A stretch of DNA of 63,072 nucleotides, filler included, from Hausera hauseri (Eukaryota), in assembly GCA_046269625.1 (NCBI GenBank). It is 12 parts of 12 records of this genome, joined end to end, with 100 filler letters (N's around TTAATTAATTAA, not from the genome) between each part and the next. Parts side by side here need not be neighbours in the genome. Positions count along the whole stretch, not along the records: positions 57,889 to 63,072 come from JBJURY010314052.1; 11 more parts are not named here. One strand, given 5' to 3'. How positions within the stretch are numbered: position 1 is the stretch's first letter; the number at the start of each line of letters is the position of its first letter. A program made the position numbers and the translations under genes. Under the pieces are notes generated by a model. That model did no database searches. It saw only the letters and a list, made by a program, of their open reading frames with translations, and was not told the DNA's origin. Shown here piece by piece: positions 27,486-63,072 of the stretch.

Positions 27486-27752
27486 AATGGAAAAACTACA
27501 TGTCCAGTATGCCGCGCAGAAGCTGCCGATCTAAAATACTATTCCAATGGCAGCTACACCCAAATAGTCAGGATCAAACCTTATCATAGCTATGAGCTTG
27601 AAAGACACTCTAGAGAAGATCAGCCAAGTACCAGCTCAGATTCTAGTCTAAGAAGACGTATGGAACTGTTAAGAGACCCACGTCGTCGCGGCACCTCTAC
27701 TGACGCAATTGGCACATCCGAGGATGCCGTTCAGGGAGGAGAAATGTTATAA
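27486..27752 (+). CDS. 3' end of an ORF with a RING-finger-like C-terminal half-motif, reading through the PPT into the LTR
   Basis: Open frame from the contig edge: NGKTTCPVCRAEAAD...GTSEDAVQGGEML*. Confidence 0.5.
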   Translation, partial: NGKTTCPVCRAEAADLKYYSNGSYTQIVRIKPYHSYELERHSREDQPSTSSDSSLRRRMELLRDPRRRGTSTDAIGTSEDAVQGGEML

Positions 27753-28497: not shown

Positions 28498-28515
28498 TGG
28501 CGACCCTAGCAGGAC
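28498..28515 (+). promoter_or_regulatory. Primer binding site, tRNA-Arg(UCG)-like
   Basis: TGGCGACCCTAGCAGGAC, close to the tRNA-Arg PBS TGGCGACCGTGACAGGAC of 412/mdg1-type elements. Confidence 0.75.
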
Positions 28516-28895
28516 AGTCTGAACCTCGCTAAACTCACTTCTCAGAGTTAAATAATTACATATCGGCGAACAGCGCCATTCATACCAAGTAATTGGATAT
28601 ATATATAGAAACTAAAATCTATTGGGATATAAGGTTATTCTGACGGGGATAAGTAAAGCAAACGTAACTGAGAACAATCATTGATAGACCAGGATTAAAT
28701 CATATACTAAAAGATAATTCCCCTATACGTGATACACATAGGAACATATATAGAGAAACAGAAAAAGTAGATAAACGTTCGAATTCTGAGAATAGAATTA
28801 AACTAGACGACATTAAGCACAAAAACCAATTTAAAACTCCACGCGAAAAACTTAAAGTAAATAAACCGAATATAGAGTTAGATAAAGTAAATATA

Positions 28896-29925
28896 ATTGC
28901 AGCCGATAACGCACCAGTAGCACAGAAGCTGGACGTCTTCACTTTCGATTCTCTAAACTTGCCGGCATATGATGGAGACCCAGACGGGCTTAACAACTTC
29001 TTGAGATCTTACAATTTGCATGCAGAAGGTGCTAGTCTTACTCCGGAGGTAATGATCAAACGCTTGTCGTTGTATTTAAAGAATTTAGCCGCGGATGCTT
29101 ATAGCGAACTTACTAACGATGAGAAGAAAACTTGGTCCTCACTGGTAGGAGCATTAAATCGTAAATTATTGCCGACCGTAACGCCGCAACAGAAACTTAT
29201 GGCATTTCAGAATAGAGTACAGCAAAAAGGTGAATCAGTAACCCAATTCGCTTTTGCGTTAAAGAAACTTGCTAATAGTTATATTAGTACATTACGAATA
29301 GCTAACGTAGCTAAAGCTAAGACAGATGCGGAACGTGAAGCCTCTGAGAAGGCAACACCGCCAGACCTAGACGTCATGATGACGACACAACTAATTTATG
29401 GTATTTGGTCACGAGATTTAGTCAAACAGCTAATTTTAGCTAGACCTGAAAATTTCGAAGGAACTTTACAGTTGGCTCAGGATTTAGAAATGGCGTTAGA
29501 CAAATACGCCAGATATAGTGATAGAAACGATAGAAATAAGGACCGAAGTGATCGCAGCGATAGAAATCGCGAAAGGGATGATAGACAATTTACAGGAAAT
29601 AAAAATTATGGGAATAAATATAATAACGGCGGTTATAGAAACGGTCGAGGTAATTACTCTAATATGAATCGGTTAGATTCTAACTGGGATAGAAATAGAG
29701 GAAATTATAAAGGTTCGAACTAATCGAGTCATAACGGTGACAACCGACATAATGATACTAGACGAAGTGCAGATAATATGCAAAATTCACCAAACCAGCA
29801 TAATAAAAGTGAAAGTAGATCTAAGTCACCAGTGAACGAAGATGGTCGACAAAGAGTCGGCAGAAATGGAAATTTAGTTTGTTTTACTTGTGGTAAAGAA
29901 GGACACATTTCGAGAACATGCCCAA
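28896..29925 (+). pseudogene. gag: Gag: capsid, R/N/D-rich region and a single CCHC knuckle; one in-frame stop
   Basis: PAYDGDP..L..FL, RVQQKGESVTQFAFALKKLA (MHR-like) and CFTCGKEGHISRTC at 29880-29921. Confidence 0.88.
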
Positions 29926-32900
29926 ATCCGCGTAGTGTCTCATTCACTAAGACCAACAAGACTAGTATGATCCGAACTAATGAAAATTTAGAGGCAAAGT
30001 ATGGCGTTCGCGGAGACACAGGTACTATCATTGATATACAGGACTTGAGAAAATTCTTGGATGCTCAGCCAGATACTAATAACTTACAAATTTTGATGGC
30101 TAGAAGAGAATACGGAGATAAGTTGAGACTACTAGAAGTGTACCACGGTTTAGCCGAACCAAGAACGGAATATCAGCATGCAATAGCACCTAAACGAATT
30201 GATATGACACGGAAAAGAGTGTTCCGATGAGTAATAAACCGTCTGATAAACCAAGTACATCGGCAGAAGTCGACTTAGATGCAGTGCCTGAGTTTACGGG
30301 CGAGAAAATGGATAAGCCTATTGATGACGAAACGGCAGAAAAGAAATTTATAGAACCGTTAATACTTAAAATTACGAAAAACAGAGGTCGTAGCCCTTCC
30401 TTAAAAACGGAACGTAGTACTCGTTCACGTTCCAAAATAACTAGAGAGAAAATTGAAGAAACGGAAAACTCGAACGTCGTCTTAGGAAACGACACGAAAC
30501 ATAGTTTGAATACCCCGGAAATCGACCCACTTACGCCTGTCGGAAGAGCGGAGTCGGTAGAATTGACTAATGAAATTAATGAAATTTGTCCACTTCCCAT
30601 TAGTGAGGAAGAAACGGCCAACAATTACGATTTCAATTCAAAAAAATGGAAAATCCGACGCTCATGGAAAAACGCCGACGAATTAAAGAAAATAAGAATT
30701 TACTGTTTAGAGCCCGAAATATTGCAACGAAATTTAGAGAAGCTCAAGCAGATTAGCGAACAAGTTGATATATCCGGTAAAGAGCAGCAATACGTCGAGA
30801 AGTTATATAAAAGCTTGAAATTACGCAGTGAAGGAAAATTCGTTGAAGCAATCGAGGTGAGGCAACCTGAAGAGGTGTCCCCGGAAATATTATGGAAATG
30901 GAAAGCAAATTGGAATTGTGAAGAGGGTTGGAAATTTCGGAAGGATGGAACAAAAATGAAGAAAGTATCGATGTAAAAATTACCCAAGCTCAAACGCTAT
31001 TATCAACGTTAGAGGAAAATCCAAAACTGAAGAGAGTAGTCCACAATTTAAAACGTATAATGGATGAAGTTCAATACGCAATAACTAAACGACTTAGGGA
31101 AAAACCGGTTAACCATCGAGGTAATATCGATCTGGAAGTATTGGGAATAGACCCGCTGGATATTCCTCCCCTAACGGAAATGATAAAAGTCGCATTTGAT
31201 ACGTCCAAACAATATACAAACTTGGAGAATCGGTTGAAGATAGAAAATGAAAAGCGAGCACAAATCTACAGCTTGAGAAATAGAATCATGTCCCCAACCC
31301 ACGAGGAGACTCAATATATAGTAAAGGCTTGTATCGTAGAGTTAGACGAATACAAGGACGAGTTTAGTTATATCGGACGAGTTATGAATTTCCTAAAAGA
31401 ACCGGACGATGAGTTAGAAGACGCCTATAAGATGCTAGATAAAGCCATAATGGCAAAACCTGTAATCACAAATCAATTGTCGGAATGGTTCGAGCTAGTA
31501 ACGCGACTAACCAAATTGGTAGAAGACCGTAGAACGAAATTTCCGCAAAGCGATTCAATGGTGAAAAAGCAACTAGAGGAATGTGTACACGACTTAGCCA
31601 CGTTGATAATAGAAATAAACATCCGTGCTTAATTTGAAGCGCTACGACAACTAAAATTTATGAAAAAGGAACAGGAAGCATCGACGATGGAAGAAATCTA
31701 CAAATTAATTGAAGAGACGAACTATACGGAGAAACGGAATATGATTTACGATGTATATTTGAAGTTAAGCATCGTCCGACTAGAAGGGATTCAATATTTA
31801 ATCGGGAAACCAATCGACGAAATTTCTGCACAAAATATTGAAATTTTGGACATTTGTCCAGGATACCGAGATACGCTAATGGATTCACTAAGGTTTCTAC
31901 ACAAACCTTAAGAATGGATAACCGAATTAGATTAGAATTTCCATACGAAATTGGTAGAAATCGGAAACGACCCACATTTTAGTTTTTAGGAACACAAGTT
32001 CGTGAAGAAATTATCGGATGCAATGGACCCTGATTCAAAGGCTATAAATGAGATGTACGAGTTAGTCTATTTATTGGTGGAAATGACAAAAATCAGTGAT
32101 TAACAGATGAGACAATTGATGCCCAGGATACATAAAGTAAAAGAAACATGTATTAAAACGAAACAAAGGGCGATAAGGTTAGACGAAATAACAAAAGAAC
32201 TTGAAGTCTACCGAAACAAATATGCTTTTACCGAGTCCGAAATTAAGAATAAACAAGAATTTGTACAAAGATGGCAAAAGGATGTGATTCTTGAATTAAC
32301 AGATTATCACCAAAAAGGGCTAATCGACTCTAACGAATTCGGTGAATTATTGAAGACGATTCAATATGCCTGCGGAAACGGAGTAGGTTTCCGAACGATG
32401 AAAATGAAAGAAATGCAACCTAAACTAAAGGAAATTTGGGAAAACATTCAAAGAGCCAATACAGCTTTAGTGGACTACCGACTTCCGGATGTCGGAAACG
32501 AACCCAAATGGGATGCATACTTCGACAAAATACTTGCCGGAAAACCAATGACTCCAGTACAGCTAAGCGAAATAGAAACATGTCCCAAAGACAGAAGATT
32601 CAATGTGGAAATGGTACTAGATTCAGCGCTAACTGAAAAAGATTCGATGGAATTAATTAACGTAAATATTACTGAGAATAAACTACAACTTATTCTAACG
32701 TTAACTAAATTATCTAGCGAAAACACGATTTATAGTACGGTGCAGAAACTTTTGATAAGGAAGTACGCAAAAATCTTAAGGAAAAAACCAGAGGTAGCGA
32801 CAAAAATACTGGTATCATCCGAGTGGATGGATGAAAAAGAATGTGAATTAACCACTTATTCCTATGTAAAGGATGTGAGAGAATAGTTATTAAACAATGG

Positions 32901-33735
32901 CGGGACAAATGAGTTAAATTACAGATTCTACTTTAGAATCTGTACTCGACGACTTAGAACAGCTGATAGATGTCGGAATTATTTCTGATGAAACAAATCG
33001 GATAGTGGTCACAATAGGTAACGAACAGACAAAAGAGGAAGCCACACGTAAGGCTAAAGCAGAACAATGCGTCGGACAAATTATGGGAGTCCGAGACGCT
33101 GCACTATATTTTGAGTATATACAAACGGACGAAGATAAAGAACAATACGACATAAATTTAGCACCACTAAGCGAAGCAAACCCGAAAGGCCCAAGGCCAA
33201 AACGTCCAGTAGGCAGACCTAAAAAATGCGAGAAGAAGTGGACTACAATGGAGAAATAATTAGATAATTGAAACAGATGTCGATTCCGACTTTTAGCCCA
33301 GATAACGAGGAATTAAGTGAATTAATGAAGAATTTAATACGAATTGTAAATTACTCCAGCCTTCGAGGAGATGTGTTAGACGATAAAGAAAAGATAATAT
33401 TTGATGCAGCCAAAATGATGAAAAGTTCACGTTTCAAACTATCAAAAAGTAACTTAACCGATGAGTCAGTAATAGAAAAGATCATGGTAGAAAACACGAA
33501 TAAAGAATTGAGAAAAGTTTTGCTGTATTTGGCTATCAAAGTAAGTCCTAACCGAGAGAACGAAATCAACAGAGCTATAAGCTTAGCACGAAAAGCAGCG
33601 AGAAGACTGCCCTACGAAGTAAGTTGGTCAAGGTTATTCGAGAAAGAAAAAGATAAACGCAATAACAATAAACTGGATGACATAATACGCAACCTGACAA
33701 TGTCAGACGTAGGAGGTCGAAAGAACGAATCAAAT
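29926..33735 (+). pseudogene. Long unknown, largely helical polyprotein region in the position of pol; includes a ubiquitin-like domain (~32800-33020) and an AT-hook (~33195-33225)
   Basis: Consecutive ORFs 29778-34443 separated only by single stops or frameshifts, colinear with the copy at 59160-62890. No RT, RNase H or integrase motifs. KRPVGRPKK present. Confidence 0.7.
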
Positions 33736-34391
33736 TGGCTAATTAGCTTGCTCACTTTAATGATGTTGATCAAGCACATAGGCGCTGTAACCGTCTATGA
33801 CTGCGATAAGTTTAAGTTAGGACAAAGATACTCCCTAATGGATCTGGAAGCTTGCGAAGATGCCAGACCGCACAAATTGGAAACAAGAGAGAAAAATTAT
33901 TTTCTATATCAACAGCAAGAATTGGTATCGTTAGATGGAATAAAATGCATGTTGAGACGATCGCGTAGCATTTTCCATTGTGGATTAATTCATGGTCACT
34001 CCTCTATAATTAAACCGACCACACCGCTTATTCCGATGAACCTAGAACGTCAACATTGTAAACAAGCCAAGGAAACTGGGAAATTACAATGGAATAGCCT
34101 ACAATTGGAAATGCAACCCGGAAAAATAATTAGAGCATATAAAGTAATATCTAGAAAGTTAGATATGCATAGCGGACATTGTAGCGGAGCAGAATACGAC
34201 ACAGAAAAAGGATTAGAACCAAACGTAGTAGTTGTAGATTTTTATGAATCAGAAATGCAATCACAAAAGGTAATGTTCCATAGTGTCACTAAATTATATA
34301 CAGAAAACCCAAAATGTCATTTACAAGACGGAACCTGTGCTTTTAGAAGCTCGGTTATAATATGGGAACCTCCCTCTGGAAGGAGTTGTAA
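33736..34391 (+). CDS. Signal peptide plus chuvirus-like (class III) envelope glycoprotein N-terminus, truncated by the contig end
   Basis: WLISLLTLMMLIKHIGA, then VYDC..YSLMDLEAC..YQQ..IKC..SIFHCGLIHGHSS..C..A..TG and GHCSG, matching the GYDC/SLLDVxxC/YCGxHSH pattern of Jingchuvirales glycoproteins. Confidence 0.75.
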
Positions 34392-39568: not shown

Positions 39569-42500
39569 AGAACGCTTAACAACACTGTATCTCATACAAA
39601 ATGTATGTACACAAACTACACATGGAAAACACGAGAACATAGGATGACATTGTATTAAAATATATCTTGTGATAGGCAGTACAATACCCCCCACAGTAAC
39701 TCGGATGAATCTGTAAATAAAGATTGAAAGAAAATACCCAGAACAAACTGTTTTAATAAAGTTTTGTGCGTACGAGGCGTTGTAATTCATCGTTATATAA
39801 TTGTCTGCTATATGTGCCGAATGTGACTGATTTTCGATGTACTTTCACCGTAGTGTCCGAATGCTGGCTGGGTTTGGCAAAGAAAAACGTTTGTTTTAGT
39901 ATGATTGGATGTTGTGTCTGGGTAAGGTAATACAGAAGATGGAGAAGAGATGATTGGAGGTAAATTATTCCAGTTTTCTGCTATAGTTTTAGAAGTTAAT
40001 AAGTTGGGAGGTGAAGTAGAAATAGGCGAGGTATAGAAATAGGGTGTGGAGCAGAATAGGGGTAAAAGTACGAGTAGAGTGTAATGCAGACATGGGGGTA
40101 GAAGTGGGATTTGTAGGTGACGATGTAGGCAGAGAAATAGGAGCAGAGGAATGATGTGTGGTAGACTGGGAAATTGAAGTAGGGGTAGAGGTGGGTACAG
40201 GGGTGAGGAATGAAGTTGATACTTTAGTTGGTAAGGTATCATTGACGTAAAAAGCCGGTTTTAAATTATTTATATGCACTACAACTTTTTTCCGTTTTTA
40301 AGGATAATAGAATTGTGTGAATGTAACTGCACTAATTTATAGGGTCCTAAGTACTGTCGCTGGAAATCACACAGTGTCTGGTTTTTTAGCCATACAAACT
40401 TTGCCGAGTATAAGTCTTCAGGTATGTACGATTTGTCGTTATGTAAAAGTCTGCAAAACGAATCCTTGCTGATTGTGACGAATTGATCCTGTGCTGCTCG
40501 TATTCTCTCGTCTGTAGGGATCTCTTCCAGAGTGGTTATTTTAAACAGTGACCGTACAGGGGTTCCGAATAAAGCTTCCGTTGGTGAGCATCCTGTGGAA
40601 GTAGACGGGGTGTTCCTCCATCCAAGCAGAACAAAGGGAAAAAGAGAAGTCCAATTGGTGTTGGATTGTACAAGTATTCTAAGCGATGTTTTCAATGTTT
40701 GGTAGAAGCGTTCGAAAAGGCCGTTCGATTGGGGATGATAAGGTGTTGTATGAATGTGGTTTATTCCCAACTGGTTGACTAGGGATTTAAACAAATTTGA
40801 CTCGAATTGCGGACCTTGGTCTGAGATGATATAACGAGAAGTCCCGAACCTACTAATCCACGTACGGATTAAAGTATCGGCTATAATGTCAGTGTTTGTT
40901 CTCCGCAGTGGGATGGCTTCCGGCCATCGTGAGGAACGTCCATCATGCTCAGAATAAATTGGTGCCCGTTGTTTATTGTAAAAGGACTGGCGATATCAAT
41001 ATGTAGTGTTTCAAAGATTGATGTGCAAGGGAAGTGGTATAATAGTGGTTTTAAGTGTTTTATGGTTTTATATTTCTGACAAGCCACGCACTATTTAACC
41101 AATGCTTGCACATCGGAGCGCATGGACGCCCAAACTACCTGACGATGAAGTAAGCGAAAAGTTGCCTTGTCACCAGATGATGTAATGACTGTATACTATC
41201 AAATGCTTATCTGTGTAAAGATGGGGCAAGAATTATTTTAGAACTTCCTGGTTTGGAAGTATCTAAGGCCACGCCATTAACGATGTGGTGAGACTTGAAC
41301 GACTTTAGAATGTCTTGGGATGGCTGATTTTCTTGCAGTTTTGTCTGAGTAAAAATTGGCGAAAAATTGATTGAACCGACTGATCTAAATAGGAAACCGG
41401 CAACTAGATTGTCAACACCGCCAATGTGTTTAATGTCAAAGTTTAACGTAGATAAATATGAAATTTGTCGTTCTTGTCGAGTTAAAAAATGTTTCATTGC
41501 TATTATATTAACCAACGGTTTGTGATCAGTCTGTATAACAAAATGACTAACTGTAAGTAAGTGAGAAGTGTCTTAAAGCGAGGACTATTGCCAGAAGTTC
41601 CCGGTCGAAAGTTGAATATCTAGTTCCAGGCGGCGTTAATTTTCGGGAAAAGAATTCTAAGGGATGATTTTCGCCTTTATATAACTGGTGTAGTACGGCG
41701 CCTACTGCGATGTTTGATGCATCTGTTGTCAAAATTAGCTCAGCATCAGGTTTAGGAAATAATAGTATTTCAACGGTCTTTAGTCCTTCGCGTAGTCTAT
41801 CAAACTTATTAACCAGTTGTGGTGTCCACATGATTTTCTGGTGTTTCACCTCCGCTTAAGTGTGCAAAAGCTGCCGTGAGTTCTAAACAATATGGGATAT
41901 ATTTGTGGGCAAAATTCAAGGTACCAAGAAAACTGCGCATTTTAGTGGTTGTCTTGGGTAGATGGGCGTTTTTAAGAGTCTGAACTCGATCAGGCTGAGG
42001 CAAATGGCCCCTTAAGGAAAAAATATGTCTAAGAAAATTAACGCGTTTTCGGAAAAAGTTACATTTCGCAAAATTGATCTGTAGTTTGACCTGATTAAGT
42101 CGTTGGAAGATAGATCGTAGGTGTTCCTCGTGTTGTTTAACAGAAGAAGATGCAACGAATATATTGTCAATATATGGATGCGCAAAAGAGAAGTCTGAAA
42201 GGATTGAGTCGACATGTCGCTGAAAAGTCTGCGCAGCGTTTCGGAGGCCGAAATGCATGTACAAATACTCATAAAGACCGAAAGATGTGGTAACTGCAGT
42301 TTTCTCGATGTCTCTCGGTGATACAGGAATTTGGTGGTAAGCTTTGGCTAAATCATTTGTTGAATAGATTGTAGTAGTATTAAGCCGATGTAATATGTCT
42401 TTGATTAATGGTAGTGGATATGCATCCATTATGGTTGAAGTATTAAAATGGCGGTAATCGCCGCATGGTCGGAAGTATCCATCTTTTTTGGACAACGTGG

Positions 42501-44626
42501 AGAGGCGAAGACCACGGGGATTTACTTCTGTGTACAATACCTGATTGTTCGAGTTCAAAAAATTCCGCCTCTACTGCATACCTGCGGCGCGGTGACGATG
42601 GACTGACTTTTTTCGAATTAATCTTTGGTGTCGTGTAATTATATGCTGGTAAATGCCGTTTACAGGAGTGGAATTCCGATCTTTCTGAAGTATACGAGAG
42701 CAAGAAGTATAGATGAATTGTTGTAAACTTACGGGTAGTTGCAGGAATATGGGTAGTGACAATGAATCGATGTTGATAGCAGCACTTGGTGAATGTTGGT
42801 TGATTGTTAGTGGAAAACCGAGTGGAGTTTGGTACAGAATTGTCGTGTCTGAGACCTTATTTGAGTAAGTCTTATTGTACAGTGTTTTTACTGAAGATAC
42901 AATATCGTGAGTGATGACATTGAGCTGTGACTGATTATCGACATTCCCCTTTGAAAGCTTACAAGGTAAAACGTGATAGTTAAGAGAATCAGGGTGTTGT
43001 GTTGACTGTTTTAAGATTGTTTGCCTACTTACCGTTGGCTATGCTGTCGTCGGGATGCCTGCTATTCCTATATTACAGTCTTCAGGTGTATTTTATTTCA
43101 GGCATCGTTGGTTACAATCGACTAGCAAATAATAGCGCAACAGGAAATCGGAACCAAGTATTGCCCTCTGGACGTTAACGACTGTAAACATCCTATGAAA
43201 TGGTGAGGAAAATTTTGGGAGAGTGAAAGAAAATTTGAACATTTCGGCAATATAATGAGGTTGACAAGAGGCGGTGTATGAAGGTTTTGTTTTAAGTGGA
43301 GAATAATGAACTGGAAAAGAAAGTGGTAGTAATGAGATCGCTGCACCAGTATGGACAAAAAAGTCTATGGAGTGAATGTTAGAAGTAGAGATAGCAGCTT
43401 TTAGTGTAAAGATTGCAAATGAAGTGTATCGGCAAGAAGAATTGGTAAAGTTACCTCTGCCAGAATCTGTCGTGAATACTGGCGGCGGAATCAGTTTTTT
43501 GGGATTGTTGAGATGGGGCGATTAATGTTAGAGAAACTGGGACGTCTATCAGTGGTATAGTTATGGTTAGTTTTATAGTGGCAGCCTGAAATACAGTTTT
43601 GAGCATTTGATCCAAATTTTGCATGATAGATGCAAACAATGTTATCTGAGTGTAGATGCGAGGAATAATATCTACAGCATTTATTTGCTTTGTTATTAAT
43701 TTTGTTACGATAATAACATAAATGACCGCGTTGGTTACGGTGTTCGATTTCTTGAGACAGAACGCGTTCGATGGGGAGGAAGCATTCCGTCGATGTGATG
43801 AAAGGTCATTCAGCTTATCATTGATTTTATTGATTGTAAGTAGTAGTGCCGCATTTTAGGCGCATAATTGGTTCAATTGGTGTTCGATAGATATATGTTG
43901 TTGACTATCGTCGGTCGTAATTGCGGCTGATATGATGGGTTGTGATTGATTTGTAAAACTTCGTGTGATTTATCGGCCAATTCAGCTAGTTTATCTAAAG
44001 CTGTAGAATCCTCATCAACAGTAAGCAAAGCCCTAATTTGGATGGATAAAGCGTTAAGAACATATCTGCGGAGTAAATCTGGATTGTGTTCCTTGGTGAC
44101 ACCCAGGGTACGTAAGTGGACCAACGAGATGTGCAAGAAATCAATAGTTTTTTGTGTCCCCATTGCATTTTAATTAAAGAATCTTTGTATTAGCGAGTCA
44201 ATTGGTGGTTTTGTTAGTTTTAATACAGCATTGAACAATTGCATATAAGGGTGAGGATGTTGAAAGATATCCAGTAAGTTATGAATTGAGGTCTTTATAA
44301 AGTTTGGTAGAAGGTAGTGTAGATTATTGGCTTTGGTTAATGAACCGGTAATGCCGTTGGATTGAAGCCAAAGTTGATGGAAGTGGAGCCAAGTCTTACT
44401 AGAGTTTTCATTGTCTGTAAAGTATTCAGAGCAATGTGAAGGTGTAATTGTAGGGGTTTTGTGAGAAAAGCTAGTATCGGTTAAAGGAGTTAGATGGTTT
44501 GATTTTGGATAGTAGACAATGGATTTGGGTTTTGTGGTCACCTTAACTGTGATGTCGTTGGTTGGTGAAAAAATCATACCTCCGCAGATTCTAGCGTGGA
44601 TGTGAATACAGAGGTTGTATTGTGAG
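39569..44626 (-). mobile_element. Ty3/gypsy element (gag-PR-RT-RH-IN), near complete and disrupted, with PPT and 3' LTR start at ~39682
   Basis: Gag with LAELADK and CIYHAKF, RPCGDYR, YIDNI, TTDASN..LEFFSRKL, TTPYHPQSNGLFER, and an S/T/P-rich integrase tail. GGGGGG precedes TGTACTGCC. Confidence 0.9.
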
Positions 44627-44740
44627 TGTGGTGCCCACAGAGGCCGGCGCCCTCTGGCCCAATTGGTTGGACACGACCGGGCCTCCGCTGCCGCCGCGTC
44701 GGACCTATAGGCGGGTCTCGATCTTCCGCCTCTAAAATTT
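44627..44740. repeat. GC-rich repeat, probable LTR terminus (copy at 3928-4011)
   Basis: On the minus strand it ends GGCACCACA directly before the gag leader, complementary in style to the TGTA(C/G)TGCC LTR starts. Confidence 0.55.
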
Positions 44741-45042
44741 CCGCGGAACAATGCATAAACAGACATTTTATTGGATTACCTGCAAAATATTCGGTATTAT
44801 TTTTTTTATTCATACTTGAAATTGTTTCACACATGGTTGCCGACAAGCCTAATGAATGTTGTTGATAGATCATTTAAATGTTAAACCGCAAATTTATGAA
44901 ACTGTAGTCACACATCAGTGATTTCTACACATTGATCGTTTAAATTCGGATGAAGAATTTTTCAGTGAGTAATGCTTTATCCGTAAATGTATCTTAAATG
45001 CCGGTACTTTGTCAAAATTGTACTAAGAAGCTTCAGTTTCAG

Positions 45043-46300
45043 GCGAGCATATAGAGATAGCTCCTACTTACTCCCACACCAACGCAACACTGTTATGTGA
45101 GATTAATGATATTAATGACGACGTAACCAACGTCTTTTTGAACTGCCCACTGCAAGCAAGTTTAAGCTACATAAATTGCCAACCATATGGATCCATATTG
45201 GACATGGAAGTCGTATCCGATTGCACAATGTTAAGAAATACGCCGAATCACGTCCAGTATGCCTGGACGTTGAATGTGGCGAAGATTAACGTTACGGGAA
45301 TCTGGCGCTGCCAAGTCAGAAATACCCTGTCGAACGTTGTTTCGATAGAAAGGTCCAAACCGAAATCCAAAGATTATAAGAGATTGAGTACTCCCAAAGT
45401 AGTTACCGACCCAATATCGATAAGTACGTTGACGTCGGTTGTGAAAAGTACAAAGCCGATGTCATTTGTCAACAGTAATCAGTTGCAACAATTTTCATCA
45501 CAATAATATTTGGGCAACACTCGTCAATCCGAACATTCTCTTAATTCTCGTATGTGCTCTCATAGTCTCCGTCATGTTCAATGTTGTCTGCATCAGTTAC
45601 TGTTCCCTCCAGAAAAGTCTACTCGTAGAGGTCAAATCTGATTCGGAATCAAATCCGTGTTTGCATCGATGTTTCTGTATCACTGCATCAAGAAAATCAG
45701 TCTTTTCCGAAATAAAGAACATCCATTATCGTAATTCTCCGAATGCATTTTCCGGCTATCATCGAGAAGAAACGTACGACGAAATGAGTTCAGAATTCCA
45801 TTCAGATCGCCATTTGATAAACAGCGTCATCACTAGTGACTTCGATCGAGTCGGTATCAGCTCGTAAAATATGGGCAACTGACCCATCGACGGGAATGAA
45901 GCATTATTCCACGCCGACGAGTCCAGATTAGGATATAAGTAAGTACGTGATTGTCACCGTTCCCTTTTGTGACAAAGGACACACTTAACCGTGTTCGCTA
46001 TCCAGCGCGAAGTTGACAATGAACTCCCAGCAGACTTGCGTGGCCGACATTTCGTCCCACTCGGCATCTCATGATATTTTGCATTCGGATAATTTACCTG
46101 ATAACGAAACTGCCATCTATTCACAACCGATTAAAAATCGATTGAAAACAGCCGACTTCAGTAAGGATCCGATGATGCAAGATTATCGCTCAAACTCGTT
46201 GATAACACCCGACAACTATCCAATAGACCTCGAATCATCGAAGCAACAAAATAGATCTGAGTCACATCAATATGGCAACGAGCTGGGCCAATCCAATTAG
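45043..46300 (+). CDS. Ig-like domain single-pass membrane protein, partial and possibly disrupted
   Basis: Phase-1 acceptor at 45042; ATLLCEI...GIWRCQV Cys pair; S/T-rich stalk; TM ILLILVCALIVSVMFNVVCI; cytoplasmic Tyr motifs; intron 45939-46005. The frame change near 45500 is unresolved. Confidence 0.6.
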
Positions 46301-47017
46301 CAAATTGGATTTCATTGAGAATCATTCCACAGTCACGCCAGTTTCGGATAAATATTCATTTTAAGTATTTAAAACTTACTCAACATTTTCTATACCATGT
46401 TATACGTTCTTCATTGACTCTAAGAATATCATTGTTTATTGAAGCTGCTATAAAAAGGATGAAGAAGGGTGAAAAGTCACTAATTACATTTGCACCATTG
46501 TATGCATTTGGTTCGTCTGGATCTGAAAAATAAGTGGTAAATTTTCGCAGTATACAAATATNNNNNNNNNNTAACCAGAGTTATATTGAAAGTTCAACAG
46601 ATATTTCAGAATTTTTGACATTTGTGGTTGAAATTTTGTGAAACAGTACACAATTTACTATCAGACTATATGAGATGATTGAAGAAATGAGCCGTTTAAA
46701 ATTTCAGCTACCTTTCCAGTGACATATTTGATCTTGTATTTTTATGAAAAATATTTGAAATTATAAATTTGTTTAAATAATACAGGCTTTTTCAACCTTT
46801 TGAATTTAAATTGTCACCTCCATTTTAGAAATTTTCATGCAATTGATTTTTAGTTTTGTTTAGTTTTTTTTATAACGCTTGTTGTCTACAGCTTTTGTTC
46901 TCTATCGATGGATATTTNNNNNNNNNNNNNNNNNNNNNNNNNNNNNNNNNNNNNNNNNNNNTTAATTAATTAANNNNNNNNNNNNNNNNNNNNNNNNNNN
47001 NNNNNNNNNNNNNNNNN

Positions 47018-51368: not shown

Positions 51369-52167
51369 GGCAGCACAGAATATCAGGAAACCCGTACCAA
51401 GAATCAACACGACCAAACGCAGCCAACAAGTGTTATTCTTTATAATATATTCGATGATCCCAATTCATCTCCTGCGTTAACGGAAACACGAAAATCCAGC
51501 ACATCATCTCTACTTGACCAGATACAATTATCCCAAAATCTTGTTTATACAATAATTGATTTCAGTTCTCCGGCAAGGTTGATTTCACTCTTTTGTCTAG
51601 CTCTGTCTCCGGATAATTTTGTGAATGTGATACGTATTCTGAGTAATTGGTTATCCGGTAGTTTCATTTCCTTATCTTTAAACAATAGCGATAGAAGACA
51701 GATCGAAGCTGCTATTTTTGAGAATGTAAAGAAAACGAATATGATAAAAGAATCGGTTATTATTGTTCGTAATTCGAGAAGAAATAATGCATATATTTTG
51801 TGTAAAAAATCTACCCCAGTTTTTGACGTTCGAACTGCACGGCCTTTTCTTTGCTATCTTCAATATTTATCAACTAATGCTCTTCTTTCTGATCGAGCAT
51901 CATCTGTTAAAATAATGAATGGCAAAAGTGATTATAGCGACCTAAAACGTTTTCGAAATCAAGGAATGGCTCCTCAAGTCGCAGATACTGTTATACTCTC
52001 ACCACAAGGACAGATCAAGTCACACGGTGCCCATGTCAATTTAACAGCATTCGGTCTCGGTGGAAATTGCTCAGCGCAGTCATTCTGTATCAAAATCACA
52101 AGGTCAATGATTGGTGATGATGAGGATACTGTCATGGCGTTCAGCAAAACCACCTTCCGACACAGAT
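51369..52167 (+). CDS. Unidentified coding exon (open from the contig edge)
   Basis: The frame of ORF 51579 is open back to the contig start; donor-like GTGAGA at 52168. Confidence 0.35.
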
Positions 52168-52309
52168 GGGTGAGATTTTTTTCACTAATTTGCGCCCACC
52201 AGTGCGGCCATTTTTTGGACATGCATACATCCTTACCAGCTAACATCGATTTTAATTTTAAAAGGTTTCTAAGCTCGAAGACTAAATATTATTTTATCAC
52301 ATTTGGTAT

Positions 52310-55300
52310 TTGGCACTACTTCCGCGGCTATACGCCTAACCTTCTCAACCGAAAAGGAAGTCGACCAACCCGCCTGTACATTTCACCGCTCCTTAGGGAT
52401 CGCTTCACTGCAATTTTCTTTCCTGATCTTCAACAATAATCAACACAACCATAAAAGCTGCACTCCACGATACAGCACAGTTCTTATATGACGCCTTGTC
52501 CTCATCATACAGCACTGATTTCTATTTTACACATCGAGGTATAAATGTACATTCTGTCGACTCACTCCAGTCTTTCGTCTGCCGTGAACGTCCAATCATC
52601 CATCTTATGCTCCATTTTCGCCTTCGTGGTAGATCGGATCCAAATCCATCTTTCTCGGATGATAAATCCACGAATACAGGCAATGTCTACCGTTTGCAAC
52701 ACTCCCACCAATCACGAGCTTCCTTAAATTTGCCTTGTGTGGCATGTTTCCTCGACAAAAACCTCTCCAGCAAACCATGGCTCCAAATCCACCAACAGTG
52801 GCTAAAATCGAACAATATAACTGATTCTTTTGTGCGAGCCAATAGTCTTTTAATCCTTCTGCCTGCCAGCGTCAAGCAGCAGATTAGTAATATATCCGAA
52901 CTGCTACAATCCTCGACACTTTACGAGACACTCTGTGAAGCTGTACTGTATGTCACGGATCCTTCGATTAACAATATAATAAAAAAGTATTTTAACGACC
53001 ACGCGGTAGGATATCAAAAGCTATCCGATTTTCTCGAAACGGCCATTCTGCAGCTCAGTGTTCTAGGGGTGACACTTACGAATAACGCGGATTTAATTCT
53101 CCGTTATTTCTTATCATCTTTGCCCACCTCAATCACAGCCTTGCTCACCGTTGTCGATGAGTTTACTGCTATCGAAAAACTGGCAATAATGGCTGACAAA
53201 TCCTTTGAGATTCTTCATACCAACAGTTCTCTCTCTATTGCGGCTGCAACCACATGTGCTTCAACTACAGACACAACATTTTTACTCAACAGTTGCAAAT
53301 GATGCAGCAACAGTTTGACAAGTTACAGCAGTCGATTTCGGCCATTACTACCCAACTAAATAATCTTAATGGGCTTTGACGAAGTGAACCCAGACCTTCA
53401 ATGGAGAGAAGCATTTCCAGACACTCTGCTCGATCCATTTCACCTGGCGGACGCATGACTTGCTTCTATCATACGCGATTTTAAAGGGATGCTAGGAAAT
53501 GCTTTTTGGGTTGTCGGTTCTACATCGAACGGTACGCTGTGGACAACCCTATTTGTGTCTACCACAATAAGTTCCAGTCACAGGCTAGATCATGCGTGTG
53601 TGGTTGTAGAAATTACAATGATAAATATCCTCGCTTTTCTTTCTCTTCTTTCTTTTTTCCAAAACCTTCAAAAAACTAATAATGCGGCCAGATTTTACGG
53701 CTCATTCTGGCGCAGGCAATATCGCTCAATATTCTGGCCGTTTCAACATCGCCTCTGCAGTCTTCCTGTTGAAAGCTGCACTTTTATGCATAGATACTTC
53801 ACATATCGACTTCCTTATAGACTCAGGAGCTGCCTTTTCACTCCTGCCCTTGCCCTTCGTTCCTACATCGACTATAATTTCCTGTCCACCGCTTTTCATT
53901 GCCAGTGGCCAACCGTTGCACGTTGCAGGAAACATGGAATTGACTTTTACATTTGCCAACTTGCCAGACAAGTTTGTCTAGAAGTTCCACGTGGCCAATA
54001 TTAAATCTCCCATAATAGGCTCATATTTTCTTGCCGCACATGATCTATTGGTCGATTGCAAATACGGCTGTCTTTTAAGCAGGAACCCAATCGCAATTCC
54101 AAACATGTGTCGCGCAGGCAATCTAGCGAGCAATTCATTGCACTCATCTGTAAACATGTTGAACGCTTCGTCATCTATAAAAAAACTTCCGATAAAGTCG
54201 GTATTCCTACAATTATGAATGCCAATCATAAATCTATTCTAAAACAAAAATCCAAGTTAGGTGTCGACAGTGGCGATGCCAGCCGCTTTTCGTCAATCAC
54301 TGCCGCTGTTCTTTCTAATGATATGCCTCAATCATTCTTATCTCTAGATTTCGATCTTAAATCATACGTCACAATGTCTTGCTTTCGCATAGTTAAAAGG
54401 GACGTCAACTTTAAGCCTCCATCCACAACTTATCACCATATAGTAACAGGGCATCAGAGGCCGATCAAACAAAAGGTTAGACATATATCGCCACGTAGAC
54501 GTAAAGCTGTGGAACAGGAATTTAATGAACTGGAAAGCTCTGGTATCATTCGGAGATCGAATTCACCGTGGTATTCTCCTCTTCATATAGTAGAAGAAAA
54601 GATGGTACCTACAGGCCATGTAGAGATTATCGCCAATTAAACAACCTAACTATTGCAGATGCCTCTGCACTACCACTCATTAAGGATATTCTTCATAGCC
54701 TCAATAACACCAATACCTACTCTACCATTGATTTTAAAAGGCCTACCATCAAATTCCTGTTGCATCTGACGACATTCCAAAAACTGTTGTAATCACACTA
54801 TTTGGCCTTTATGAATACATCTTCATGCCTTTCGGCCTACTCAGAGCATCTCAGACCTTTAAGCGCCACATTGACACCATTCTGTCAGGACTAGATTTTG
54901 CTCACTCATACATAGACAACATATTAGTCGCTTTCGCCTCCATCAAACAACATCATAAGCACCTTAAAATTATTTTCCACAGATTACATCAAAGCAACCT
55001 ACAAACTAATTTCTCTAAATGCAATTTCTTCCAGAAAAGCATCAACTTCTTAGGCCACATAATTACGCCCAAGGTCATTCGCCCCAGCCTGATCGCTTAC
55101 AACAGTAAAAAATGTTATATTACCAACGACTACTATGGACATGAGGAGTTTTCTAGGGGCACTGCATTTCGTACACAAATATGTGCAACACTGCTCCGAA
55201 CTAACGGCACCTTTCGCACACCTCTCATCCGGGAAGAAAAGACAATTAATTCACTGGACTCCCGATCTAGTAAATCAATTTGATCGCCTTCGTGAAAGTC

Positions 55301-57788
55301 TAAAAGCCGTTGAGATCTTGGCTTTTCCAAAACCCAACGCGGAATTCATACTAACCACCGATGCCTCCACCACAGCCACTGGTGCAATATTACACCAAAT
55401 ATACAGTGGTGTCGATGAACCATTAGAATTCTATTCCCGAAAGCTCACGCAACCAGAAAGCCGATACTCAACATTCGATCGTGAACTTTTGGCTGTAATT
55501 CTAGCGTTAAAACATTTCAAGCATTTGCTTCCATCACGTCAATTTACCATCCAAACCGACCATAAGCCTCTACTTCACATAGTGACGTTAAAACAGCCAT
55601 CGCCGAGACAACAACGACAGATATCATATCTGTCGACGTTTACTTATTCCATGAAATATATTTCAGTCACCGAGAATTTAGTAGCAGACGTTCTTTCGCG
55701 GTCGGTGAACTCAATTACAGTTCAGCCAATTTTTACCTCTGAAGTCCTGAGAAGTAATCAGCCATCTTCTGATATTCTCCAAACTTTTAAATCGGTTGAG
55801 ATCGTCGATGGCATCGCCTACGACACATCCAACGCGACTAATAAAAAATCATTCTTGCTCCATTGCTACAAAAGACAGCTTTCACTCACTTTCACTCTCT
55901 TCATCATCCGGATTCAAAAGCCACATTTCGTCTACTGCAACGCCACGTTGTATGGCAAACTATGCGTACAGATGTACAAATCTGGGTTAAGGGATGTGCA
56001 GCATGCCAGCAATACAAGGTCAACAAACACCTCAAACCACAACTTTACCACTTTTCTTGCACATCTTGTTTTGACACTGTTCATTTGGATCTTGTCGGTC
56101 CTTTCCTATCCGATAAGGACTATCAATATATCTTATCCATGATGGATTGCGCTTCTCACTGGCCGGAAGTCGTTCCTCTTCGATCAACAAATACCGACTC
56201 GGTAGCAGATGCATTTATCAATATATAAGTCAGCCGTTTTGGCTCACCACGTCACATCATAACTGACCAGGGTCCGCAGTTTGAAGTTAATCTTTTCAAA
56301 TATCTTGTAAAGCACTTGGGGATAGCCCATTTCCATACGACGCCGTACCATCCCCAAGCAAATGGTTTTCCTTAAAAATTCTGGCAAACAACAATCATAA
56401 CTGGACCTCAATTCTTCCTCTTGGCCTACTCGCTTGGCGCAACACGCCATTCACGACCATAGGTTGTGCTCCAGCTGAGGCTCTCTTTGGGACACTAATT
56501 CATGCCCTATTTGAGCTCTCCAATCTCGATGAAAGTCCGTCAGATGAAGTTATTCGTGCGGCACCGTCCCACTTTGTAGATGTAAACTCAAACGCCTTTT
56601 GCCGCCTTATAAATAAAGACAAATCTTATATTCCAGAGGACTTATACTCAGCCAAGTTTGTATGGCTGAAGGATCCGTCACCTTCTGGTTTTCGGCCTCA
56701 AAACATTGGCCTTTACAAACTACTCAACCTTTCTTCGCATACCGCTACTATTTTACGTAAGGACAAACCTTAAAATGTACACATTTCTAACCTTAAGCCA
56801 GCTTTCTTCGTTGACGATGACTAGGATGACAGCATTGTTTCAAATCCCAACTCTAAATTCTCTACCCTCCAGCCATCATCTAATTTTCTTGCTGTTTTTG
56901 ATCCGTCATAGCAATCGCTATCACATCACAAGAAATTCGTTTCACTTCCTTCATCGTACACGGCTCTTTCATCACCTACTTAGCCGTCATTGCCTGCACA
57001 TTCACCAATCACTTCACCTTTATCGCATGATTTGCTTCCATCTCCAGTCTCGCCATCTTCGCGTGATCCTTTTCCCTCCTCAGTTTCTTCTCCACTTTCA
57101 CCTCTTCATGAATCATTCTCCCAAAACATTATAAAATGCACAGCGTTTCTACCTCAAACAATTCCACAAGCACCAGTAACATCCAACAGATCACGCCAAG
57201 TGACATTTAGTACTTACAGCAGGGAGAAGTTTATACATGTAATCCAACGTCTAACACGTACCAGAACCGATTAGGTACAAGTTCTTTTTCCTACTATAAT
57301 CTGCGCTTATTTATTCTCTTTATAGTCTTCATCTTCCCACGGGGGAAGGGTGATGTAGTGCCTGAAGTGTGGGTTAACGAATCGGTGAATACACCAAAAT
57401 GCTAGTCAATCTATTACTACAAATTTCAAATAGATACAAACGGGCCTGGAATTGTTAATTTCTCAAACCAGTGTCAGATTTGTCGTGCGATACACGCTCG
57501 TTCAAAATGTCAAAAGTGAAACTAATTTAAGGATTATATGTAACCATAAACACCGAATAATATTGCTAATTAATACACCAATGAATTCGTAAGTCTCATC
57601 GAATTATTGTCACAAGCCCTGACAACATGAATTCGTAAAAGTTCGTGACCTGAAATACAGCAGTCATCCATCTCCAGATTTTCTTATTCATTAAGGCAGA
57701 AGAGCAGAGAATTCTTCAACAGAGGTCCATTAAAAATGAAAATACAGCAGTGTCTCTAATGACGAAACGGTAAACGATACTCTTCTGA
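52310..57788 (+). mobile_element. Ty3/gypsy element (same lineage as 39569-44626), disrupted; 3' LTR starts at 57354
   Basis: Gag SKPWLQIHQQWL and CFYHTRF, protease FLIDSGA, RT YIDNI, RNase H TTDAST and integrase [23 protein letters not shown] precedes TGTAGTGCC. Confidence 0.92.
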
Positions 57789-57888: not shown

Positions 57889-60800
57889 AGAATGGGAATA
57901 AGTAAAAGCTAATTAGAGAACAAACATTGATAGGTTTAACTCAAATCAAAATTTATTAGTAAACGGCGTAGAGAAACATAATCAAAGAAAAACTCGAAAT
58001 AAACTTTATATAGAAGACAAATTAATCGATAAGCATTGTTTATCTGACAGTGAACTAACCTCCGATAAAGAATTTAAAGCTTTTCCTAGGATTAAAGTAG
58101 ACAAACCGAATAAAATAAAGATGGCAACAGAGAACCCAGCTGTAGCTCAAAAACTTGACATATTTACGTTTGATTCCTTGAACTTTCCGGCCTATGATGG
58201 TGACCCAGACGGGCTAAATGACTTTTTACGAACTTATAAATTACACGCAAAAGGTGCCAGCCTTTCGCTCGAAGTTATGATTAAGCGATCGTCCTTATAC
58301 TTGAAAAATCTAGCTGTAGACGCTTATGGTGAACTTACTAATGATGAAAAGAAAGCATTGTCTTAGGTAGTAGGAGCCCTAAATCGTGAACTATTGCCAA
58401 TAGTGACGCTTCAACAAAAACTTATGGTCTTCCAGAATAGAACGGAACAAAAAGGTAAGTCGGTTACTCAATTCGAATTCGCATTTAAGAAACTTGCTAA
58501 TAGTTACGTGAACACGCTAAAGATAGCTAATGTGGCAAAAACAAAAACGGACGCAGAACGTGAACAGCAGAAAAGGCAAGTCCGCGGATTTAGATGTCAT
58601 GATGACAATTCAGTTAATATATGGCACATGGTCCAGAGATTTAGTTAAGCAACTAATTTTAGCTCGACCAGACAATTTCAAGACCTCATTACAGTTAGCA
58701 CAAAACCTAGAGATGGCATTAAATAGATACGCTAGACAGAGCGATAGACATAATCGAAACAATGATCGCGATAACCGCGATAGAAATCGAAACAATAGAA
58801 GATTTAATGATAATAATAAGAATCGAGGTTATAAGAATGGAGCTCAGAATACCATTAGCCGCCACTTGGGATACGATAATAGGAACATTGGTGATAATTG
58901 GAATTCATATAATTCGTATAACAAAACAGGATATATTTCAGTTAGAAATCAAAATAATGACCAAAGTAATAAAAACCGGTATATGGATAATCGGAGTTTT
59001 GAAAATAGAAATAACGGAATCGAAAAGCAGGCTCAAAATAAGACAAAAGGTAGAACCAAATGGTCAGTAAATGAAGATGGACGACAAAAGATCGGCCGAG
59101 ACGGAAACCTGATTTGCTATTCATGTGGCAAGGAGGGACATATAGTTCGATCATGCCCTAATCCACGAAGTGTATCATTTGAAGAAACCAGTAAAGCTAG
59201 CACGATAAAAGATAATTTAGAAGGAATTTATGGAATCGAGGCGATATAAGTATGATTATCGAGATGCAGGATTTGCGAAGATATGTGAAAAATATGGTCG
59301 AATCCAATAATCCACAAGTAATCAAGGCCAGGAAAGAGTACGAAGAAAAGCTGCATCAAATGGAAGTTTATTACGGGTTAAGAGAACCAAAAACGGAATA
59401 CGAAAAAGCGATAGCACCTAAGTATACATACATTGCCCGAAAGAAAAATCTAGATCAAGCGGCAAGAGAAGAGAAAGAAGAAAAACCAACTGCGTCTTCA
59501 AGCGTAGACTTGGATGCAGATACCAAAGACACACATCAAAATAAAGATAAAACAGAAGAATAGATTGAGAGTGAATTTATTGGGCCATTAATACTTGAAA
59601 TAACCAAAAATAGAGGCAGAAGCCCCTCACTTAAATGAAGATCACGAACTCGTTCACGATCCCCAATTACAAAGGACTTAGATAAAGAGGAAGATTTCGT
59701 TATTACCTTAAGAGACAAAACAGAGTTAAATACTCCTGTTTTAACAAATATTTCAAATATCAATAAAATTAATTAAATATGTCCATTACTGCCTAGTGAG
59801 GAGGAATCAGAAAAAAAGACTATCGGGTTTGGGAAAATCAGAAAATATTGGAAAAACGCAAAGGAACTAAGTGAAATAAAAGAGGCGCTGAATGATCCGG
59901 AAAGGTTACACGAAAATCTCCAGAAATTCCAACAGATGAGCAATCAGTTAGATATTTCCGGAAAGAAACAACAATCCATAGAAAAATTATAAAAAAATTA
60001 AAGCCAGTGCTCAACAGAAGGAAGAAAACACAAATGATAAATTCCAAGAGACGCCGAAATATGTGATAAAAAGATGGAAAATATACTAGAGTTGTGGATG
60101 AAGAGTGAAATCGAACTTTCGAAAATACGTGGAAATAGAGAGGAGCCGCTCTCCGACCAGATTAATCAAACAGAAGAACTACTAAATGCACTAAAACAAA
60201 ACCCAAAGCGGAAACGCGTAAGACGCAACTTAGAAGAATTGGTAGATGGAATCGAAGAATCAATAAATTCTTATCTTCACACTAAGCCGGCGTATGAACT
60301 AAACGAAGTAGAATTGAATATATTGAGCATAAACCCAACCGATATCCCCCTTCTGATAGCGATGTGTAACTTAATAACGGAGAACTCCAGAAAATACCCA
60401 AATTTAGAAATCCGATTTGGAAAAGAAAATGAAGCCCGAACCAAAATTAACTATTGTAAAAGTGCTATGGTTCACTCTGAAGAAGTAAAAACAAAAAGAA
60501 TAATATACGCTTGTCTTCTTGAATTAGACAAGTATAAAGAAGAATTTAACTATATGAAACATATTACAGAATTTATAATAGGTCCGGATTACGAACTAAA
60601 TACGGTCTTGCGACGCTAAACGAAATAATCGACACTAAACCCACAATATCCAAACAAATATGGAAGTGGATAGACTTATTACCTTCCATAACACAAGTGA
60701 TAAATGGAAGATTAAGAGAAATCGCTATGACGGAACCTATAATGAAATACCAATTAGAAGAAATGCTACTAGATATCGTTACAATGGAAGATGAAGCGAA

Positions 60801-63072
60801 ATTGCGAATTAAATTTGAATCATTCAGAGAACTTGAATTTATGAGCAAAGATCAAGACCGAACAATATTAACAGATATATATAGTATGATGGAAGGAAAA
60901 AAATTTTACAAAAAAGAAACAAGCTAAGTGATCTTTAGCGGATTTTGGTGAACATCCGTTGGGAAGGGATACAGCACCTAATGCAGAAACCGCTGAAGGA
61001 AATCTCAGTACAGGAAATCGAAACATTAGAAGTATGTAACGATCACCGGATCCCTCTAGCGCAAACACTACAATACTTACAGAATCCAGCAGAATGGACA
61101 CCAGGCTTCGACCTACATTGCTACACGGAACTAACAGATATTAGGAAGGTTTTTCAGTTGACAAGCGACGAAGCCAAGTTTATAGGCAGGTTAATAGATG
61201 CAATAGATCCGGATGCCGAAGTATTAAATCAAACACTAACTAATAGAACTATTAACAGAAATGGCTGAGATTGATGAAACATTAGCCAAACGGTTGATAA
61301 ATCGAATACGTCTGAAAGGAAATCCGGATACGTTCCGAGAAGAAACAACGCGAACTAAATGAACTACTAAGAGAAGTAGAAGTATACCAAAATAAGTATA
61401 CCCTTACGGAATCGGAAATGAACGACAAAATGAAATTCATACAGAGATGGCAGAGAGACAGAATAGCAGAGGTGACCAGCTACCAAGAGAAAGTCCTGAT
61501 ACAACCAGAAGAAATGTGCCGAATAATAACATTGATACAACAAGCTTTCGGGAACGGAGACGGATTTAGTGTATCCGTTATGAAAATATTGCAACCGCAA
61601 CTAAGAGAACTACGCGAAAGAGTCCAAGTAGGACACGTGGCATTAACGAATTACGAGTTACCCGACGCGTATAACGAGGATGAGTGGGATGAATACCTGC
61701 AAGGTTGAAACGAACAGAGTGAAAGAACCCCGATACAAATTTATTAGTCACCAGTCGGTATCCAGAAAACGAAATTTCATTACTTGACCCGATACTAGCA
61801 TAAAAAGAATTAGGTAACGTACTGAAAATAGACATAAGTAAAGACAGATTAAAAAAACTGATTCCAACCTTAACTAAGTTTTCTAGTGAAAACACTGCAC
61901 ACAGAGCCGTTCCCAAGCTCCTAATAAGAGAATACGCTAAACTTTTGAGAAACAAACCAGAAGCGGAGATTAAAGTGAAAGTATCATCTAAATGGATGGA
62001 TGATGAGGAATTCGAGTGCACTACTCATACCACCTTTGGGATATAAGACAACGAATAATGGATAAAGGCGGCAAAGAAGGAGTTAGTTACCGGCTCTATT
62101 TCAGGGGTAGGATATTAGATGAATTAGAATCCTTAATGGACGTTGGTATCATACCTCGCGAAGAAAATCGAATAATAGCAATAATTGTTAACGAACAAAC
62201 AAAAGACAAAGCCATAAGGAAGGCACATACAGAACACTGCGTTGGAAAAATCATGGGGATTCAGGACGCTGCAATGTACTTTGAATACTTACAGACGGAT
62301 GACGATAAACCGCAATACGATAAGAGTTTAGTCCCACAAAGCGAAACTTTACCATCACTAAAACAGAAACGACCAGTCGGAAGACCAAAGAAAATAAAAT
62401 AAGTGGACTATAATGCAGACCTAAACAGAGAACTAAGACAACTATCAGTACCCACTCCGAGTTCAAATAATAAAGAACTAGTTTAGTTAATAAAAGATTT
62501 AATAAGGATAGTTAATTATACCGGATTACAAGGTGACATACTATCCGAGAAAGAAAAACTAATATATAATAGAGCACAGACCATGAAGACTTCGCGATTC
62601 AAGTTATCTAAATGTACCTTCTCTGATGAAACAGTAATTGATTGTATTATGATAGATAATAAAGCGGAGGAATTAAGGAAAGTCAAGACATATTTAGCGG
62701 TAAAAACTAACCCCTTCCGAGAAAACGAAATTGACAGGTCAATCGGGTTAAATAGAAAAGGTGCAAGAATGGTACCTAAAGAAATAAAATGGGCCACACT
62801 ATTCGAACAAGAGGATAACGGAAAAAGAACCAATAACTTAGAGGACATGGTACGAAACATCTCTTCAAGAAAAGGGAACGAATCCAATTGGTTAATCAAT
62901 CTACTAACAATAATGATGTTAGTAAAGCAGATGGGAGCTATCAACATATACGATTGTGACAAATTTAAGGTAGGTCAGAAGTACTGCCTGATGGGTTTAG
63001 GAATATGTGAAGATGCAAGACATAATAAGCTCGAGACAATAGAAAAAGGATATATATTATATCAACAAAGGG
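57889..63072 (+). mobile_element. Second, diverged copy of the pol-less Gag-ORFX(UBL, AT-hook)-glycoprotein element
   Basis: MATENPAVAQKLDIFTFDSLNFPAYDGDPDGL (58121), CYSCGKEGHIVRSC (59115-59156), RLYFRGRILDELESLMDVGI, KRPVGRPKK and WLINLLTIMMLVKQMGAINIYDCDKFK (62889 onward), colinear with 28896-33920. Confidence 0.88.

Follow-up and report, generated by a model that had tools for sequence, protein, structure and literature searches.

The planarian element Burro/GYPSM1 is portrayed as a giant gypsy-like retrotransposon whose Gag harbours CCHC zinc knuckles and which carries accessory motifs including Ubi2/SUMO-like and BCL2-like ones (PMC6431247). Its envelope protein (Env), which gives matches to mononegavirus fusion proteins, is in frame and followed by a protease (PR), a reverse transcriptase (RT), an RNase H (RH) and an integrase (IN) within one open reading frame (ORF; PMC6431247). 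GAG-ENV-POL is the order which a further report gives for flatworm, nematode and bryozoan elements of the gB type (PMC13524379). In that report Smed_errantivirus_5 and _6 measure, with flanks, 16.9 and 18.0 kb compared to 14.5-14.9 kb for Smed_1-4, and the greater length would provide room for a long insert. Here we describe a related retrotransposon from a window of 63,072 nucleotides of Hausera hauseri DNA (GCA_046269625.1), the term denoting the whole stretch analysed, which consists of 12 contigs with N/TTAATTAATTAA spacers between them. One copy of the element, designated copy B, makes up the whole of contig 12 (57889-63072; JBJURY010314052.1) while its partner, copy A, is contig 7 (27485-34391). 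With a probability of about 0.85 we regard A and B as decayed copies of a multi-copy long terminal repeat (LTR) retrotransposon family in which Gag, a long central region termed ORFX and a gB-type Env have been under purifying selection and in which pol is likely to be located downstream of Env.

In blastn and six-frame blastp comparisons contigs 7 and 12 matched only each other and no other contig of the window. A frameshift-aware pairwise alignment of A (28671-33918) with B (57917-63071) is collinear over 1,775 codon columns and free of rearrangements. It reveals an order common to both copies, namely Gag, CCHC, ORFX (about 1,260 codons), a signal-like segment and an Env of the gB/chuvirus type, with no pol between Gag and Env. 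In A and B alike, the CCHC knuckle, the ITKNRGRSPSLK block and the motifs KRPVGRPKK, NESNWLI and YDCDKFK fall on identical columns. In copy B, all features of which lie on the plus strand, the N-terminus and capsid region of Gag (57917-58748; 78% amino acid identity to copy A in the capsid part) is followed by a single CCHC zinc knuckle (59115-59156; Pfam zf-CCHC, E 4e-6) and by ORFX (59199-62876; about 1,260 alignment columns), which is interrupted by stops and frameshifts. ORFX includes the ITKNRGRSPSLK block (59600-59635), a segment labelled ubiquitin-like by eye (61966-62189) and the AT-hook-like KRPVGRPKK (62367-62393). The internal signal-peptide-like segment (62877-62939) and the start of Env (62940-63071), which together share 69% amino acid identity with copy A, contain the YDCDKFK motif at 62949-62969. 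In copy A, likewise on the plus strand, Gag (28671-29963; weak Pfam Retrotrans_gag match, E 0.005) comprises a CCHC at 29880-29921 which, as in B, is recognised by zf-CCHC. There, ORFX is placed by alignment to copy B at 29964-33723, and the signal-like segment together with the N-terminal part of Env at 33724-34389. The last 200 codons of A match Monjiviricetes_fusion (PF24664, E 3e-17) at model positions 6-220 of 653. Copy B begins within Gag, has no LTR in its contig and stops 44 codons into Env, and copy A is cut by its contig end about 200 codons into this protein.

The preliminary description of contig 12 had put forward the same order of parts, including a ubiquitin-like domain and a signal peptide. 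Whereas CCHC, the ITKNRGRSPSLK block, the AT-hook-like motif and YDCDKFK stand at identical columns, these two labels turn out to be weaker than claimed. The ubiquitin-like segment gives no Pfam match in B, a DIX match of E 0.13 in A and a pairwise E of 0.05 to the ubiquitin-like stretch of the Env relative P0004 (see below), in which it holds the same place in the order. The hydropathy of the signal-like segment peaks at 1.82 in A and nowhere exceeds 1.5 in B. The segment aligns with the hydrophobic segment preceding YDC/FDC in all 14 relatives compared.

That ORFX was translated and, as proposed in the preliminary description, under purifying selection is supported by the divergence of the two copies. 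Over 1,198 codon pairs their ORFX sequences share 0.44 of the amino acids and 0.58 of the nucleotides, so that extensive DNA divergence indeed coexists with conserved peptide blocks, the ITKNRGRSPSLK block being identical in both. With pS at 0.73, i.e. near saturation, and pN at 0.34, the ratio of nonsynonymous to synonymous divergence (dN/dS) amounts to 0.16 (bootstrap 0-0.24). Calculated block by block from the codon alignment, its point estimates do not exceed 0.32 in any of the seven well-aligned ORFX blocks, two of which have saturated dS, and are hence not near 1 across ORFX. Neither the ambiguous block (0.57, with an interval reaching 1.69) nor the N-terminus preceding Gag (0.70, reaching 1.34) is informative. 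Identity by codon position is 0.59/0.73/0.40 compared to 0.28/0.30/0.30 expected by chance. Since codon alignment favours amino acid similarity, two controls were run. In a codon-blind DNA alignment the longest ORFX stretch shows position identities of 0.56/0.71/0.39 (P 1e-28), and the same pattern recurs in all ten stretches. Twenty random ORFs, neutrally diverged in simulation to 53% identity, exhibit flat position identities, dN/dS values of 0.63-0.89 and 66-98 stop-bearing codons, compared to 15 such codons in the real pair. Because both controls agree, we consider ORFX a selected coding region.

The family to which A and B belong is multi-copy in two public sequencing runs. In the first (X1), possibly derived from the sample of origin, 6,523 contigs align on copy B and cover 30 of 30 bins, 299 of them at 99% identity or above, 775 at 95-99%, 2,375 at 90-95% and 3,074 below 90%. 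In the second (X2), which carries another organism label, 542 contigs do so, again with all 30 bins covered. The depth sums of these contigs on B do not equal copy numbers, and the pieces among the matches listed are short, none spanning the whole element. Hence the claim that the Gag-ORFX-Env arrangement is an evolved lineage under selection and not a one-off deletion product is borne out. In principle, A and B might also resemble each other because a locus that was duplicated, non-coding or domesticated by the host has decayed neutrally, in line with the breaks which each copy carries (13 and 19). The codon-position identities, the behaviour of the simulated neutral ORFs and the four identity classes among the X1 contigs all speak against this, so that its probability is close to negligible.

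The breaks themselves, as obtained from the frameshift-aware alignment, comprise nine stops and four frameshifts in A, and nine stops and ten frameshifts in B. Eleven of the 13 breaks of A fall on columns which are unbroken in B, in agreement with the earlier statement that most lesions lie at different positions. At one of the two shared columns a frameshift in A faces a stop in B, and the other sits in a poorly aligned, ambiguous part of the alignment (columns 733-775). Breaks coincide exactly more often than under random placement (P=0.008), while windows of 2 or 10 columns yield P values of 0.15 and 0.11. Among the matches listed, length differences of other contigs lie no more than 7 bases from at least four of the ten B frameshifts, and at a minimum of two of the nine B stops other contigs carry a different letter, so that these breaks at least belong to B alone. 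The mostly unshared breaks are consistent with a single frame having once run from Gag to Env, columns 733-775 being ambiguous in this respect. Inspection by eye for a programmed frameshift near column 768, where the alignment is poor, revealed no shared slippery heptamer, and such a shift, although conceivable, was set aside.

Copy A additionally provides the 5' end of the element. A candidate LTR of 751 bp (27745-28495, +) with a 7-bp terminal inverted repeat (TGTTATA...TATAACA) directly adjoins a polypurine tract (PPT; 27733-27744, +) and is followed by a candidate primer-binding-site-like (PBS-like) TGGCG motif (28498-28515, +), found in copy A only. Within the window no second copy of this LTR was found, so that multi-copy status is not accompanied there by an LTR pair. 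A PPT before and a PBS after the same LTR suggest that elements stand in tandem at 27485-27744 or else that the assembly has collapsed there. In this segment upstream of the LTR a frame is open at 27486-27746 (+) and includes a RING-like CPVCR motif. The frame gives neither a Pfam match nor a match to the proteins of the Env relatives. The 3' end of the family appears to be coding.

What distinguishes the two copies is ORFX itself. Pfam, PDB sequence and ESM Atlas searches retrieved no family or homologue of it, nothing significant emerging from the PDB sequence searches in particular. Word-seeded protein searches (656-2000 aa, 205-655 aa and, for the Gag region, 1266-4029 aa) found nothing either, such searches being insensitive at about 30% identity, as the profile search described below showed. 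No further locus was confirmed when viral and metagenome contigs were scanned for patterns. Two AlphaFold2 models are unusable, with confidence scores (pLDDT) of 33.7 and 36.5. The distance from CCHC to Env amounts to about 1,300 aa in A and B compared to 232-624 aa in the five relatives in which both are seen, so that the novelty of the element resides in a region without found homologue and of about twice the length present in those relatives.

Length and position of ORFX (about 1,260 codons) would suit a pol that has diverged past recognition, leaving an ordinary Gag-Pol-Env order. Yet A and B share no motif of PR, RT, RNase H or integrase at aligned columns, and none of the 12 pieces scanned gives a Pfam pol match at E<=1. 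The pol of contigs 6, 9 and 11 of the window, taken as nine pieces, shows mostly strong matches of these pieces to each other (E as low as 4e-80), but all matches to contigs 7 and 12 have E>=0.8. Furthermore, the amino acid identity of ORFX (44%) is lower than that of Gag (67%). A hidden pol at this position is therefore very improbable. Copy A has, at column 468, a DTG that was considered as a protease site and rejected, as it is not present in B.

To the preliminary description the lineage lacked pol altogether, a view which the Env relatives do not support. A profile of the end of ORFX and the start of Env, searched against 1.84 billion representatives, recovered 44 relatives, every one of them through the Env part. 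The Pfam scan covered 18 of these as well as the cluster member P0048, the other 26, each shorter than 450 aa, being unscanned. Nine relatives reach at least 700 residues beyond the start of Env, and in all nine an aspartic protease follows directly after Env (weakly in P0010, E 0.002). In five of them (P0006, P0012, P0019, P0024 and P0048) RT, RNase H and integrase follow in the same ORF, and in P0005, P0010, P0012 and P0024 a CCHC is also found upstream of Env. The top match, P0004, displays the order Gag, CCHC, weak ubiquitin match (Pfam, E 0.03), GRP and Env, and its Gag matches that of copy A with E 5e-17. GRP motifs, comparable to the AT-hook-like motif of A and B, lie 100-227 aa ahead of Env in P0004, P0005, P0006, P0013 and P0048. 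Since both contigs end inside Env, nothing located 3' of it is visible in either copy, and the “pol-less” look is, judged by these relatives, likely an artefact produced by truncation of an order of genes that is already known. A contig breaking off within Env lends this order a pol-less appearance, which calls for caution.

Several results weigh against reading A and B as members of a Gag-ORFX-Env-Pol family. Their contigs offer no sequence 3' of Env in which pol could be seen, and short relatives without pol are indistinguishable from truncated ones. The Env of copy A shares only 24-32% identity with the long relatives and, in a weakly resolved tree of 30 rows, occupies a long branch outside of them, not nested among the pol-bearing ones. 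ORFX has no detectable similarity to the Gag-Env intervals of the relatives, nor does it score above shuffles on a profile of the pre-Env segments of all 18 relatives. On a profile of Bcl-2-like segments its last part reaches 5.0 and 1.3 bits while shuffles attain up to 18.8.

Some of these observations would fit a long-lived non-autonomous lineage which has lost pol, retains Gag, ORFX and the gB-type Env and depends on a helper, borrowing Pol from an element such as that on contig 6. No pol is found in the 5.2 and 6.9 kb of contigs 12 and 7, the Env of copy A branches outside the pol-bearing relatives, and the frame preceding the PPT (27486-27746) lacks matches to Pfam and to proteins of the relatives. 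Both contigs, however, stop in Env, right before the site at which PR is situated in nine of nine long relatives. These relatives run hundreds of residues past integrase, so that an integrase-free 3' end is expected under either view. No description of a pol-less Gag-Env lineage of this type was found in the literature as covered by titles and abstract openings. We judge helper dependence unlikely. If the family were truly pol-less, it would be an unusual case, namely an ancient, high-copy, enveloped lineage that has long parasitised another retroelement and on which selection lasted long enough for synonymous sites to become saturated.

A pol of the Env-Pol type is present in the genome. The RT-RNase H-integrase region on contig 6 (24619-27384, -), a candidate pol which is not physically linked to A or B, is the best match within the window to the pol of P0006, P0019, P0024 and P0048, with 32-40% identity in the integrase region. 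This region matches the five pol-complete relatives at 134-173 bits, compared to 61-89 bits for contigs 9 and 11. The sense strand of contig 6 is A-rich (0.39), as are copies A and B (0.39-0.41), the value for contigs 9 and 11 being 0.29-0.31. Nothing links contig 6 to the A/B family, which likewise counts against the preferred reading. On contig 6 (22295-27384, -) the integrase is in frame with a further cysteine-bearing ORF having a hydrophobic segment. About 1.5 kb of broken ORFs lie beyond it, and no Pfam family was found for the extra ORFs.

Assuming the Gag-ORFX-Env-Pol organisation, the element may function as follows. By analogy with the order in the relatives, Gag, ORFX, signal segment, Env, PR, RT, RH and IN would be made as one long polyprotein from the LTR promoter, of which Gag and ORFX would remain cytosolic. 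The hydrophobic segment inside the chain would serve as a signal sequence, cleaved just ahead of YDC, and deliver the Env ectodomain into the endoplasmic reticulum. Past the membrane anchor of Env the chain would be back in the cytosol and continue into PR-RT-RH-IN, whereupon PR would cut the cytosolic parts free. This course of processing follows what is generally known about signal sequences and the proteases of retroelements. ORFX, with its helical region, ubiquitin-like module and AT-hook, would most likely be an accessory cargo acting on the host cell, as has been proposed for the extra domains of Burro.

Some features of the relatives and of the remaining window may be recorded here. P0012 (CCHC-Env-PR-RT-RH-IN) is filed at NCBI as a hypothetical protein of a Flavobacteriaceae metagenome-assembled genome (MAG) and is likely eukaryotic DNA in the MAG bin. 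P0048 is an ORF of 4,844 aa in which RT-RH-IN is preceded by Env, by several repeats of an aspartic protease, and by C2H2 fingers as well as ankyrin repeats, and which extends about 1,550 aa beyond integrase. Several contigs of the window bear transposon pieces according to Pfam, which agrees with a set of eukaryotic repeats. A pair of related Gag-Pol elements of the ordinary gypsy-like kind (39569-46917, -, and 51369-57788, +) share about 65% DNA identity over pol, and a DDE_3 transposase fragment lies at 18552-19226 (+; E 1e-5). On contig 2 (4112-9366, -) one can discern by eye a PARG-like segment, which is broken, as well as a stretch of coiled coil and an end that resembles RTE LINEs. An ORF of 415 codons with a P-loop (14176-15423, -; weak AAA_24 match, E 0.04) resembles, by eye, the Rep helicase of small DNA viruses. 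On contig 10 (47338-47892, -) broken ankyrin repeats (Ank_2, E 2e-4) follow a long coding stretch that is A-rich, likewise broken and contains an internal repeat, perhaps representing the cargo of another large element.

Among known systems, Burro resembles the A/B family in Retrotrans_gag with CCHC, a long accessory region and an Env placed after Gag (PMC6431247). The weak Bcl-2 matches ahead of Env in P0008, P0038, P0044 and P0045 correspond to the Burro layout described there (PMC6431247). A and B, however, possess one CCHC instead of the two to three given for Burro, and ORFX contains no MATH, BIR, ankyrin or BCL2 match, as judged by Pfam and the Bcl-2 profile. Burro, compared by description only, is stated to exceed 30 kb, while the A/B contigs measure 5-7 kb and the LTR candidate 751 bp. 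As two tested Burro features fail, we do not file the family as Burro in spite of its Burro-like layout. Anakin, a BEL/Pao element, shares a chuvirus-like glycoprotein on an LTR element, and its defective copies are common (PMC7642597). It differs in belonging to BEL/Pao, whereas the Env relatives of A and B place Env before PR-RT-RH-IN. With the gB-type GAG-ENV-POL errantiviruses of the Ty3/gypsy kind the family has in common a 5' Gag which comprises capsid and CCHC and is preceded, as seen for copy A only, by LTR and PBS, and a gB/chuvirus-type Env after Gag without intervening pol, PR-RT-RH-IN being known from the relatives only. P0004, P0005, P0006, P0012, P0019, P0024 and P0048 share the signal-like segment and the YDC start of Env. 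In its cysteine spacing, Y..YQ, aromatic-x-CG and P.C, the Env of copy A appears by eye closer to six Platyhelminthes_C1a rows than to three Insecta_C1 and three mosquito BEL rows of the alignment excerpt considered (PMC13524379). The cysteine pattern alone is common to all C1 types in this excerpt, and the likeness to its Schmidtea rows is likewise one seen by eye. The roughly 1,260 selected residues of ORFX, having no found homologue, are a candidate source of new host-interacting domains. As we read them, A and B represent a new family of the little-studied Gag-cargo-Env-Pol retrotransposons, set apart by an unusually long uncharacterised cargo.

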